Assembly (NCBI GenBank): GCA_964651705.1
Contig: CAZYWZ010000016.1
Coordinates: 967 to 64,966, forward strand
Direction of reading: 5' to 3'
Source of the DNA: an uncultured Verrucomicrobiales bacterium
Lineage (GTDB): Bacteria > Verrucomicrobiota > Verrucomicrobiia > JADLBR01
Length of the DNA stretch: 64,000 bases
The notes beneath the pieces are model-generated. The model was given only the letters and a program-made list of their open reading frames with translations. It had not been told where the DNA came from and ran no database searches. Shown piece after piece: positions 30,206-35,641 of this stretch (its first letter is position 1; the number at the start of each line of letters is the position of its first letter). The position numbers and the translations under genes were made by a program.

Positions 30206-33200
30206 ATGAAACGGATCAGGTGGATACTCTTGGGACTGCTCGCCGTGACTCCGGCCGCATCCGCCGACGAGTTGGAAAGGCTATTTGAGTCGCCGCCGGA
30301 CTCGGCCAAGCCGGGCGTGATGTGGATGTGGATGGGGCGGAATGTGACCGCCGGGGGGATCACCCGCGATCTGGAGGCGCTCCACGACGCGGGATTTGGT
30401 CGCGTCCTCATGTTCAGCCTGTCCGACACCACGACGCCCTGGGCCGGAGAGATCGGCAACAGCCCGCACCCGGAAGTCACTGCCTGGACCGAGCCCTGGT
30501 GGCGACTGGTCCGGCACGCGGTCGAGGAATCGAAGCGGCTGGGCATCGATTTCGGGATGTTCAACGGCCCGTCGTATGAGACGAGCGGCGGGCCGTGGGT
30601 GAAGGTCGAGCACTCGATGCAGGAGGTGTGCTTCTCGCAGACACCGATGCGCGGCCCCGGCCGACTGACGCTCGATCTGCCGCGGCCGGCGGTCGATGCG
30701 CGCGCGGTGCAACTGTTTCCCCTGTACAATCCGAACACCGGGAAGGTCGAGAAACCGGAGATCCCCGAGCGCAAGACGTTCTATCGCGACATCGCCGTGC
30801 TGGCCATGGCGGCCGATGGAATCGTGGCGAAGGATGGGGTGATAGACCTGACCGGCAAGACGCATTGGGATGCGCCCGCGGGAGACTGGATCGTCTATCG
30901 CTTCGGCCACACGACGATGGGCACGCTGATCCAGCCGGCGCAGTGGAAGGCCACGGGATTCGAGTGCGACAAGATGAGCCCCGAGGCGGTGACGGCCCAC
31001 ATGAGCCACGTCATCGGCGAGATCAAGCACCATCTCGGGAAGCTGGTCGGTGACGCGTTCACGTTCGTGCACCTTGACAGCTACGAGGCGGGCCGACCGG
31101 GTTGGACGCCCCGGATGAGGGAGGAGTTCGCGGCGCGCCGCGGCTATGACATGACGCCGTTCTTGGCCACCTTCGCCAAACGCATCATCGGCGGCGCGGA
31201 AGAGACGGCGAAGTTCAGGGCGGACTTCGAGGACACCATCAAGGATCTCTACCGGGACGTGCATTTTGCGCTGACCTCGAAGATGCTGCGGGAGTCGGGG
31301 CTGGTATTCTCCTGCGAGCCCTACGGCGGCCCGTGGCGGCCCGACGAAGTGATGCCGCACGTCCATCGCGTGATGACGGAGTTCTGGACCAGCGGCGGGA
31401 AGTTCGTCGCCCGTCGCGACTTGCTGGAGACCGTGGCCGCGCTGCGCAAGTCGGGGCAGAACATCGTCGAGGCGGAGGCGTTCACCGGTAGCCCCCGCGA
31501 TAGCAAATGGAGCGAGACCCCCGCGTGGCTCAAGCCGATCGGCGATGGCGCCTACTGCGCCGGCGTGAACCGGCTCGTCCTCCACCGCTACGTCCCGCAG
31601 CCGTGGGATGACCGCTACAAGCCCGGCAACGCGATGGGGCAGTGGGGGACGCACTTCGACCGCACGCAAACCTGGTGGGAGCCGGGCAAGGCCATGGTGG
31701 AATACTGGCGGCGGTGCCAGGCGCTGCTGCAATGGGGCAAGCACAAGGGTGGCCCCGGGGATTTTGAAGTCATGGCGGCGGCGCCCGGGCTGCAAGTGAA
31801 AGCCATCCATCGGCAGGATGATCGGGCGGATGTCTATTTCGTCGCCAACACGGATCCGGGGGCCGCGGGCATGGCGACCTGCGCCTTTGCGGTGAGCGGC
31901 AAGCAGCCGGAACTGTGGGATCCCGTCCGGGGGACGCGGCGGCGGTTGCCGGATTTCGAGCAACGAGACGGCAGAACGCTCGTCCCGTTGCAGTTCGCCC
32001 CGGCCCAGAGTCATTTCATCGTGCTCCGGCAAGAGGCCGCGGCCGATCGGGGGCGAGGCCGGCCCAATTTCCCCGAGTTCCGATCGGTGGTCGACATCAC
32101 CGGGCCATGGCAGGTCAGCTTCGATTCCAAGTGGGGCGGCCCGGAGGTGCCGGTGGAATTCCCGACGTTGGAAGATTGGACCCGGCGGCCGGAGGCCGGC
32201 ATCCGTCACTATTCCGGCACGGCGACCTATCGCGCCACGTTCGACGGCGCATCCGGCGACAGGCTGGGGCTGGGGACCGTCCACGATCTCGCCCGCGTGC
32301 GGATCAATGGTCGGGACCTCGGGGTCGTCTGGTGTGCCCCGTGGGACATTGAGATCCCGATGGGGTTGCTCAAGCCGAAGGGAAACCGGATCGAGATCGA
32401 TGTGACCAACACCTGGGCGAACCGGCTGATCGGAGACGAGCAGGAGCCGCCGGATTGCGAGTGGGAGCGCGGACACATGGAAGCCCACGTCCGGGAAAAG
32501 ACCGGCAGGGAGATCCCCTATTGCGGCCAGTTCCTGAAGCGGTTTCCGGATTGGTTTCTCCGCGGCGAGCCCCGGCCGTCGAAAGGCCGCTATTGCTTCA
32601 CGACGTGGAATTATTTCCAGAAAGACTCGCCGCTGCGCCCCGCCGGCCTGCTCGGTCCGGTGAGGCTGTGTGTCGCATCGCAGAAGCCCAATATCCTCTT
32701 CATTCTTGCCGACGATCTGGGGTGGCGCGACACGGGGTGCTACGGCAGCGCTTTATATGAGACTCCCCACATCGACCGCCTCGCGGCTCGCGGATTGAGG
32801 CTGACGCGGGCTTATGCGGCGAGTCCGCTGTGTTCGCCGACGCGCGCGAGCATCCTCACCGGCCAGGATCCGGCCCGCATCGGCATCACCTGGCCGGCAT
32901 GCCATGAGGCGGTGGCCCAGTTGGAAAAGAAATTGGATCCGGGCGACCCGTCCATAAGGGTGCTCAATGCCCAGAGCCTCAACCGGCTGAAGCCGGAGTA
33001 TTTCACGCTCGCCGAAGCGCTTCGGGAGGCGGGTTATGCGACGGCCCACTTTGGAAAATGGCATCTTGGCTACAACGGCCCCTATGAGCCCAAAGACCAG
33101 GGCTTCGACCTCGATTTCCCCCACACGCCCGCCGCGCCTGGACCCGCCGGAGGCTATCTCGCCCCCTGGAAATTCATCCATGACCCCCCGCTGACCGGAG

Positions 33201-35641: not shown

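Follow-up and report, generated by a model that had tools for sequence, protein, structure and literature searches.

A GH106 module joined in frame to a sulfatase–β-sandwich–propeller protein in an uncultured Verrucomicrobiales bacterium

Analysis of a 64,000-nucleotide stretch from an uncultured Verrucomicrobiales bacterium (GenBank assembly GCA_964651705.1, contig CAZYWZ010000016.1, positions 967 to 64,966; hereafter the window) revealed a gene encoding five parts in one frame: a signal peptide, a glycoside hydrolase family 106 (GH106) module, an S1 sulfatase, a β-sandwich resembling carbohydrate-binding modules (CBMs), and a five-bladed β-propeller (Table 1). Judged by sequence comparison, this fusion gene is a GH106 gene joined in frame to the 5′ end of a sulfatase–sandwich–propeller (SSP) gene, which elsewhere is a single gene for a protein of ~1000 amino acids (aa) with its own signal peptide; the residues CVAS replace that signal peptide. 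The reading that we favor, with moderate confidence, is that of a secreted or periplasmic multi-enzyme, GH106 fused onto SSP, that would attack a sulfated fucose/rhamnose-rich glycan in exo mode.

Reading frame and modules of the fusion gene

The maximal open reading frame (ORF) spans 30098..35641 (+) and would encode 1847 aa from a GTG, while the ATG at 30206 yields a product of 1811 aa with the stop at 35641. This product begins MKRIRWILLGLLAVTPAASA followed by DELERLF, and its N-terminus aligned with MKQTFALLTALLLPLVLFADELERLF, the N-terminus of a 73%-identical stand-alone GH106 protein (L011). The G+C content at third codon positions (GC3) was 0.80–0.86 in all parts of the gene, matching the surrounding genes. 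A second assembly, Logan contig SRR27828366_27784 (L001, product P0001), aligned collinearly to 8.7 kb of the window with 97.9% nucleotide identity, and P0001 shared 98% aa identity with the window protein, gap-free over aa 168–1811. Since L001 encodes the same protein, it reproduces the reading frame across each of the three junctions. The sole indel between the two was a 2-bp deletion in a GCGC run of L001 (L001 ~5382, equivalent to window ~30649–30650), which lies toward the N-terminus of the GH106 module, distant from every junction. Values of dN/dS between the two strains were 0.13–0.36 in every module and, being based on small counts, constitute weak evidence for purifying selection on all modules. 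Synonymous divergence between window 30206–35638 and L001 was 0.02–0.03 in the GH106 core, the sulfatase, and the sandwich, and 0.10–0.13 in the GH106 N-terminus and the propeller, an unevenness that hints at intragenic recombination.

The GH106 module was recognized by PF17132 (E 5.6e-110, 369 bits vs. a cut-off of 29), included an NCBIfam rhamnoside_JR (rhamnoside jelly-roll) domain at aa 631–746, and matched the GH106 structures 5mqm, 5mwk, and 6q2f at E values of ~1e-98 to 1e-100. In BT0986 of Bacteroides thetaiotaomicron (5mqm/5mwk; 5mqm at E 3e-100), the catalytic and Ca2+-binding residues are the acid E461, the base E593, and D458, S459, E538, and E561 (PMC6828813). In the HMMER alignment, the putative acid E294 (nt 31085) and base E424 (nt 31475) fell on E461 and E593, and the putative Ca2+ ligands D291, S292, E371, and E392 on D458, S459, E538, and E561. 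The module is therefore a complete family member in which all six residues are kept, with predicted rhamnosidase activity, and like BT0986 it ends its jelly-roll in a GLLGP motif. It differs from BT0986 in being compact, without the two inserts of ~170–225 aa, and in being distant in sequence and fused to a sulfatase; furthermore, BT0986 is an α-L-rhamnosidase acting on rhamnogalacturonan-II, which is not the expected substrate of the window locus. Close GH106 relatives (P0008, P0009, P0016, P0020, P0095, and P0096) carried other fused catalytic modules in protein database matches, namely S9 peptidase/esterase-like, GH28/pectate-lyase-like, SASA acetylesterase, GH29, and GH95 modules, which suggests a tendency of this GH106 clade toward multi-enzyme fusion.

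The tail GLLGPVRL (aa 814–821) is followed by CVASQK and then by PNILFILADD, so that the sulfatase module starts four residues past the tail, at QKPNILFILADD. Neither a start codon nor a signal peptide was present at this GH106/sulfatase junction. The sulfatase module matched PF00884 at aa 828–1171 (E 2e-54, 185 bits vs. a cut-off of 25) and SGSH_C (PF16347) at aa 1129–1263. It contained the formylglycine motif C876-S-P-T-R880, and the other sulfatase hallmark residues were all kept (D836/D837, K951/H953, H1034, D1096/N1097, and K1127). The module is accordingly an S1 sulfatase in mature form with intact catalytic motifs and predicted sulfatase activity. Its best matches in the PDB were 9fo1 (E 1.4e-98), 6ust, 7stt, and 7oza, and 9fo1, 6ust, 7oza, and 7oz9 are S1_16 structures according to the description of AMOR_S1_16A, whose active-site residues include W79, a Trp that is conserved in S1_16 and reportedly blocks the pocket of the active site (PMC11760155). 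W896 aligned to W79, and the module is S1_16-like, being closest to solved S1_16 structures.

The S1_16 set used for comparison comprised AMOR_S1_16A (9fo1; exo kappa-carrageenan G4S), BT3796/BT3057 (4S-Gal/GalNAc), and the Hungatella hathewayi 6S-GalNAc enzyme (6ust). These were among the best PDB matches, with E values from 1e-98 to 1e-51, and the module shares with them CSPTR, the metal ligands, the Lys/His pairs, and the Trp. It differs in having a Pro in place of His149 of AMOR_S1_16A, in bearing a CBM-like domain at its C-terminus, and in lacking a separate signal peptide. Among the genes of the 64-kb window, there was no Pfam match to a formylglycine-generating enzyme (FGE) or an anaerobic sulfatase-maturating enzyme (anSME).

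AlphaFold2, run with a deep alignment, modeled the β-sandwich with 11 strands at a predicted local distance difference test (pLDDT) of ~95. Although no Pfam CBM family matched, Foldseek retrieved CBM70, CBM6, CBM16, CBM22, CBM35, and a porphyran-binding CBM (E 1e-5 to 1e-3, template modeling (TM) score ~0.5), and the domain is CBM-like by predicted fold, with putative ligand binding. Sulfatase plus sandwich also form an abundant protein of ~640 aa, with hundreds of members at 60–67% identity across the phyla of the Planctomycetota–Verrucomicrobiota–Chlamydiota (PVC) group. The segment that follows is probably a flexible linker, as its pLDDT was mostly 44–74 and it lacked secondary structure in both models.

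The propeller was modeled with five blades (pLDDT >90), and Foldseek matched it with a probability of 1.00 to GH117 (5ta7, 3p2n), GH137 (BT0996, 5mui), GH43, GH159, and GH32, at E 3e-10 to 1e-7 and 13–17% identity, with TM scores of 0.4–0.67 normalized to the target and 0.25–0.43 normalized to the 512-aa query. Sequence models gave sub-threshold signals: PF04041 (GH130) scored E 0.18 and 11 bits vs. a cut-off of 26, there was no GH43, GH32, or GH117 match in Pfam and no family in NCBIfam, and the C-terminal 513 aa searched against Pfam, NCBIfam, and PDB sequences yielded sub-threshold GH130 signals only. The propeller belongs to a sizeable family, with 422 homologue clusters at E ≤ 1e-3. At least 120 homologues were 45–81% identical, and most of the best 120 had ≥60% identity, a length of ~360 aa, and a stand-alone form with a signal peptide. 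Homologues originated from Planctomycetota, Verrucomicrobiota, Kiritimatiellia, Hydrogenedentota, Armatimonadota, and Bacteroidales; the best annotation found among them was "predicted GH43/DUF377," and no characterization of the family was found in the literature.

Family-invariant residues of the propeller include D1519, D1568, R1643, D1658, N1699, D1714, and R1734, and H1642 is near-invariant. D1568 belongs to a GDP motif with which the inner strand of blade 2 begins. A family profile matched the GH130 structure 7fip (E 2e-6) and the GH117 structure 4ak5 (E 4e-5) over blade motifs only, and placed the GDP motif, WH(N/V)GDPSVV, on WGVEDPRI of 7fip, which we take to carry the GH130 catalytic Asp, and on KVHDPCII of 4ak5, which presumably carries Asp245 of BpGH117. 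By analogy, this alignment points to D1568 as a candidate catalytic residue, as a lead and not as proof. Transfer of catalytic residues from the family-profile matches was dropped, since these were blade-repeat alignments in shifted register. Compared with GH117 (5ta7, 3p2n, 4ak5), GH137, GH43, and GH130, the propeller shares the five-bladed fold, "DP" at inner-strand starts, and S-x-D-G-x-x-W, and differs in its 13–17% identity, in reaching no hidden Markov model threshold, and in having Asn for the first-blade Asp; its conserved core also has Arg and His residues that are not typical of GH43.

The preliminary description of this DNA had read the gene as a single exported polypeptide with junctions at about 32680, 34090, and 34560. 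The single ORF with its putative signal peptide and the repetition of its frame in the independent assembly bear this out, the coordinates were right within a few codons, and no stop or frameshift interrupted the L001 frame at any of the three junctions. The proposed order, a complete rhamnosidase-type architecture with its GLLGPVRL tail, six residues later a mature-form S1 sulfatase devoid of its own signal peptide, a β-sandwich after it, and a five-bladed-propeller module, held as well, on the GH106 model match and its six kept residues, the CVASQK spacer, the PF00884 match with all catalytic motifs, and the two predicted folds. The loss of catalytic residues which that description had considered was found in neither GH106 nor the sulfatase, both active sites being intact. 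Its claim of two different glycosidic cleavages stood in part: the catalytic residues of GH106 are intact, while we infer the second cleavage rather than show it, because the propeller reaches no GH family threshold.

Table 1. Parts of the fusion gene, in window coordinates.
Feature	Residues (aa)	Position	Strand	Basis or remark
Sec-type signal peptide (putative, AxA cleavage motif), MKRIRWILLGLLAVTPAASA		30206..30265	+	Read from sequence; aligned to the L011 GH106 N-terminus
GH106 module including C-terminal jelly-roll ending GLLGPVRL	21–821	30266..32668	+	PF17132, NCBIfam, PDB 5mqm alignment
Four-residue junction CVAS		32669..32680	+	Occupies the place of the sulfatase signal peptide; window reads ...GLLGPVRLCVASQKPNILFILADD
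Formylglycine-dependent S1 sulfatase, S1_16-like (predicted)	826–1295	32681..34090	+	PF00884, PF16347, PDB matches, AMOR_S1_16A alignment
CBM-like β-sandwich, native C-terminal appendage of this sulfatase clade	~1318–1438	34157..34519	+	AlphaFold2, Foldseek
Gly/Glu/Pro/Thr-rich linker, WDFGGEAAGEGIPSVGEEKGLTTPPPATNITS	1439–1468	34520..34609	+	AlphaFold2
Five-bladed β-propeller, GH43/GH117/GH130-like uncharacterized family	1469–1811 plus stop	34610..35641	+	AlphaFold2, Foldseek

Origin and distribution of the fusion

SSP was found as a single ORF in at least three other Verrucomicrobiota metagenome-assembled genomes (MAGs), namely L008, L009 (Opitutaceae), and L010 (Verrucomicrobiales), each giving one tblastn high-scoring segment pair over aa 825–1811 at 72% identity. 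In these proteins, their own signal peptide is followed by (K)PNI(I/V)FILADD. SSP was also represented in the protein clusters P0390, P0391 (69 member sequences), and P0392. The closest GH106, that of L011 (Verrucomicrobiota), was 73% identical and stood alone, stopping ~14 aa past GLLGPVRL. Because SSP exists elsewhere as a single ORF and the L011 GH106 as a stand-alone protein, we interpret the window gene as GH106 fused onto SSP. Overall, SSP proteins are 60–73% identical to the window protein over aa 825–1811 and have the same sulfatase–sandwich–linker–propeller order in a single ORF, but they have their own signal peptide and lack the GH106 module. In L089, GH106 is instead a separate downstream gene: 50 bp past the SSP gene (60% identical) begins a GH106 gene whose product is 30–37% identical to the module. 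In L090, an unannotated gene of 993 aa follows the SSP gene at the same 50-bp spacing. The nearest relatives of each module were Verrucomicrobiota, and several isolate names suggest lake or wetland MAGs.

Searches of a database of 5.8 billion proteins, of 1.84 billion representatives (exhaustively, with the C-terminal 1200 aa as query), and of 185,579 species genomes returned the full fusion only from the window and its 98%-identical relative; among GTDB species representatives nothing closer than 73% was present, and no GH106–sulfatase fusion was found in the literature. The three-module combination had not been recognized as a described enzyme type. This was upheld for the full four-part order, which in these searches occurred only in this lineage, and not for its components, as SSP is already a single gene elsewhere and sulfatase–GH fusions have been published. 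Likewise, when the same domain order was sought in public genomes as against split genes, the parts occurred elsewhere as separate, adjacent, or otherwise fused genes. One further match, P0242 (2712 aa), showed ten separate stretches matching the query and is apparently a giant protein with multiple sulfatase domains.

Sulfatase–GH fusion genes have been described in Kiritimatiellales, Planctomycetes, and Polaribacter, including S1_7+GH10, S1_7+GH32, S1_15+GH29, and an S1_16 fusion, and were interpreted there, without biochemistry, as coupling desulfation to glycoside cleavage (PMC6388578). The window protein resembles them in combining a formylglycine sulfatase and a glycosidase in one gene, in the context of sulfatase-rich polysaccharide degraders. 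Whereas the described fusions join two enzymes and involve other GH families, the window protein has an N-terminal GH106 and a C-terminal unclassified propeller, three putative active sites, and a CBM-like domain. A GH141–GH168 enzyme of a fucoidan-degrading planctomycete has also been described as a novel multi-domain enzyme. Multi-catalytic carbohydrate-active enzymes (CAZymes) and sulfatase–GH fusions being already known in PVC bacteria, the gene introduces no new principle; what is new here is the order GH106–sulfatase–propeller, with three putative active sites on one polypeptide.

Proposed function and alternative explanations

The window (66% G+C) encodes at least 11 S1 sulfatases, five GH29 α-L-fucosidases, and several GH141-like/pectate-lyase-like β-helix proteins, one of them directly upstream of the fusion gene. 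It also holds GH95-like and GH43-like genes, an IclR regulator, a DUF1549/DUF1553 and DUF1501 pair, and a MoxR/DUF58/VWA cluster. The neighborhood of sulfatases and of GH29, GH141-like, and GH95-like genes fits the earlier proposal of a sulfated deoxy-hexose glycan as target. Marine Verrucomicrobiota consume sulfated methyl pentoses, and their rhamnosidases are surrounded by sulfatases (PMC8857213); the gene mix of the window agrees with what has been published for these marine lineages, for freshwater Verrucomicrobia (PMC5615132), and for fucoidan-degrading Planctomycetota (PMC11685898). S1_16 was among the dominant sulfatase subfamilies in the fucoidan polysaccharide utilization loci (PULs) of one marine Planctomycetota strain (PMC11685898), and for sulfated arabinogalactan proteins desulfation was a prerequisite for exo-glycosidase action (PMC8406133).

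Substrates, order of action, kinetic coupling, and catalysis by the propeller are what we infer in the following. Together with the many sulfatases and fucosidases encoded around its gene, the protein would work at the non-reducing ends of a fucoidan-like polymer or of an algal or cyanobacterial sulfated exopolysaccharide. The S1_16-like sulfatase would remove a sulfate ester from the terminal sugar, and GH106 would release terminal α-L-rhamnose or a 6-deoxy-L-hexose closely related to it. A further terminal sugar would be cut off by the propeller, which would most likely act as an inverting exo-glycosidase through the invariant Asp of the GDP motif. The CBM-like domain and the probably flexible linker would hold the substrate chain near all three active sites. 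Stepwise channeling between the modules is put forward as a hypothesis. A bolder version, which we hold to be possible and yet doubtful, has the propeller founding a new glycoside hydrolase family and, at the same time, the fusion forming a kinetically coupled assembly line with three active sites. In this version, the active site of the propeller would consist of the single invariant Asp of the GDP motif together with invariant Arg and near-invariant His residues, and would be specialized for a sugar exposed or still sulfated during the breakdown of a sulfated deoxy-hexose glycan; desulfation, rhamnose removal, and the third cleavage would then be coupled on one tethered chain.

Gene arrangements in other lineages connect the same families. 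GH106 and propeller genes were 7 bp apart in a Bacteroides MAG (L071), and in L070 they shared a locus with fucose/arabinose-isomerase-like, SDR, and enolase-superfamily genes, a set that would fit 6-deoxy-sugar catabolism. In both L003 and L006, the gene immediately upstream of the propeller gene encoded a sulfatase, and P0207 represents an independent fusion in reverse order, propeller then sulfatase. Other recurrent neighbors of propeller genes were GH127-like, GH28, GH109-like, CBM6/PA14, and Laminin_G_3/WbsX-like proteins, and the propeller gene context is glycan degradation in general. The Bacteroidales loci (L071 5188–15548 and L070 5893–13903) combine GH106, propeller, sulfatase, isomerase-like, SDR, and enolase-superfamily genes and also hold a GH32N-like/F5_F8 type C protein with a type IX secretion system (T9SS) sorting domain; they are possible deoxy-sugar glycan PULs of gut or sediment Bacteroidales. 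A 1076-aa PQQ_2 protein (L004 11529–14759) was encoded near the P0207 propeller–sulfatase fusion in L004 and L005. The L003 neighbors of an 81%-identical stand-alone propeller were rejected as orthologues of the fused modules, the GH106 being 35% and the sulfatase 24% identical and the β-helix showing no similarity.

Several observations weigh against the favored multi-enzyme reading. The modules and their close homologues are known only from sequences and models. In the sulfatase, H149 of AMOR_S1_16A, which is near the sugar at the S0 subsite, aligned with a Pro, and the specificity of that enzyme is therefore not transferable. The first-blade position of the GH43/GH32 catalytic Asp is an Asn in the propeller, which meets no GH family threshold and whose catalytic residues were guessed from motif analogy alone. 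No rhamnose catabolic genes were seen within the window. Within 6 kb of the propeller gene, a sulfatase was found in only 10 of 56 loci (in eight of these at ≤500 bp) and a GH106 in only five of the 56. Because of these low counts, the propeller family is not obligately tied to either partner, and the idea of an obligately sulfatase-coupled family was dropped, most propeller genes having neither gene within that distance. The partner sulfatases and GH106s found elsewhere belong to other subclades, at 22–37% identity, and the arrangements therefore indicate a link between families and not between orthologues. Finally, the 2-bp frameshift in L001 separates the first ~148 codons of the GH106 module, signal peptide included; this could reflect either misassembly or a real, pseudogenizing lesion, and in the latter case the fusion is possibly dispensable.

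Among the alternatives, it is conceivable, though unlikely, that all modules are active on different sites or glycans and that the fusion provides co-export and fixed stoichiometry with no ordered hand-over. The fusion of GH106 relatives to unrelated S9 esterase-like, GH28, SASA esterase, GH29, and GH95 modules, and of the propeller to SASA or SHD1 domains elsewhere, suggests promiscuous domain shuffling in these phyla, and the full fusion is confined to one lineage. However, the three families turn up together repeatedly, adjacent or fused and in differing orders, in lineages independent of one another, which is more than random shuffling predicts.

Rather improbable is a propeller serving as a non-catalytic binding or scaffold module, which would leave a bifunctional protein (rhamnosidase plus sulfatase) with two substrate-binding domains. 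Its failure to reach a GH family threshold and the Asn in place of the canonical first-blade Asp are compatible with such a role, invariant Arg and near-invariant His residues of the central ring could simply bind an anionic sugar, and most family members are not beside other CAZymes of known function. On the other hand, most of the best 120 homologues were 60–81% identical, from several phyla and with invariant Asp residues, and the GDP motif matches catalytic-Asp motifs of GH130 and GH117. The stand-alone secreted proteins of ~360 aa are typical of enzymes rather than of appended binding modules, and the recurrent neighbors are GH127-like, GH28, and GH109-like glycosidases and sulfatases.

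That the propeller is a GH130-like glycoside phosphorylase and not a hydrolase appears very improbable. The best profile match was the GH130 β-1,2-mannobiose phosphorylase 7fip (E 2e-6), the blade motif WH(N/V)GDPSVV resembles its WGVEDPRI, and invariant Arg and near-invariant His residues could bind phosphate, yet repeated blade motifs are all that the HMMER alignments cover. Moreover, all family members examined carried signal peptides or lipoprotein signals, and the module is here part of an exported protein, whereas the GH130 phosphorylases known to us are cytoplasmic.

Least credible, and largely refuted, is an artefact, with two or three separate genes merged into one frame by contig chimerism or by an overlooked frameshift or stop: although the gene is unusually long and the 2-bp indel of the L001 copy shows that indels occur in these assemblies or strains, the independent assembly is collinear with its sole indel far from the junctions, SSP occurs as a single ORF in another three genomes and in three protein clusters, GC3 is alike in all modules, and the GH106/sulfatase junction has neither a start codon nor a signal peptide.

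Neighboring genes and significance of the fusion

Several further genes of the window stood out. At 4548–7709 (+), a 1054-aa ORF combines an N-terminal S1 sulfatase with a ~580-aa C-terminal extension lacking a Pfam match; this C-terminal half was rejected as a relative of the sandwich or propeller, as it showed no similarity, and so was the GH43-like gene at 47214–48320, with only a weak blade-level match. The gene at 35800–39906 (−; 1368 aa), with Laminin_G_3, PD40, a hydrazine-synthase-alpha middle domain, and a Mal s 1-like propeller, is convergent with the fusion gene, with 159 bp between the two stops, and adjoins an IclR-type regulator at 39906–40736 (−). A PQQ_2-type propeller protein of 1470 aa is encoded at 53325–57734 (+) and followed by MoxR ATPase, DUF58, and VWA genes at 57738–63149 (+); the 1076-aa PQQ_2 protein of L004 is related to it. 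Inside the sulfatase/fucosidase cluster, a PSCyt2/PSD1 (DUF1549/DUF1553) and DUF1501 pair occupies 20321–23532 (+), and such a pair also adjoins the stand-alone propeller gene in L007.

Sulfated fucose/rhamnose-rich algal and cyanobacterial glycans are among the most recalcitrant carbon pools, and most sulfatases and many proteins in the loci degrading such glycans are without an assigned function. As a Rosetta stone, the fusion together with the neighboring and reordered arrangements ties the propeller family, the sulfatase-plus-CBM-like family, and GH106 to one task. Its main value would be as a guide to the function of two conserved families, the unclassified propeller and the sulfatase-plus-CBM proteins. 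It narrows down the substrates and partner enzymes that experimenters would try when defining a probable new glycosidase family. The fusion also offers a natural construct for asking whether joining a sulfatase to glycosidases speeds exo-degradation.

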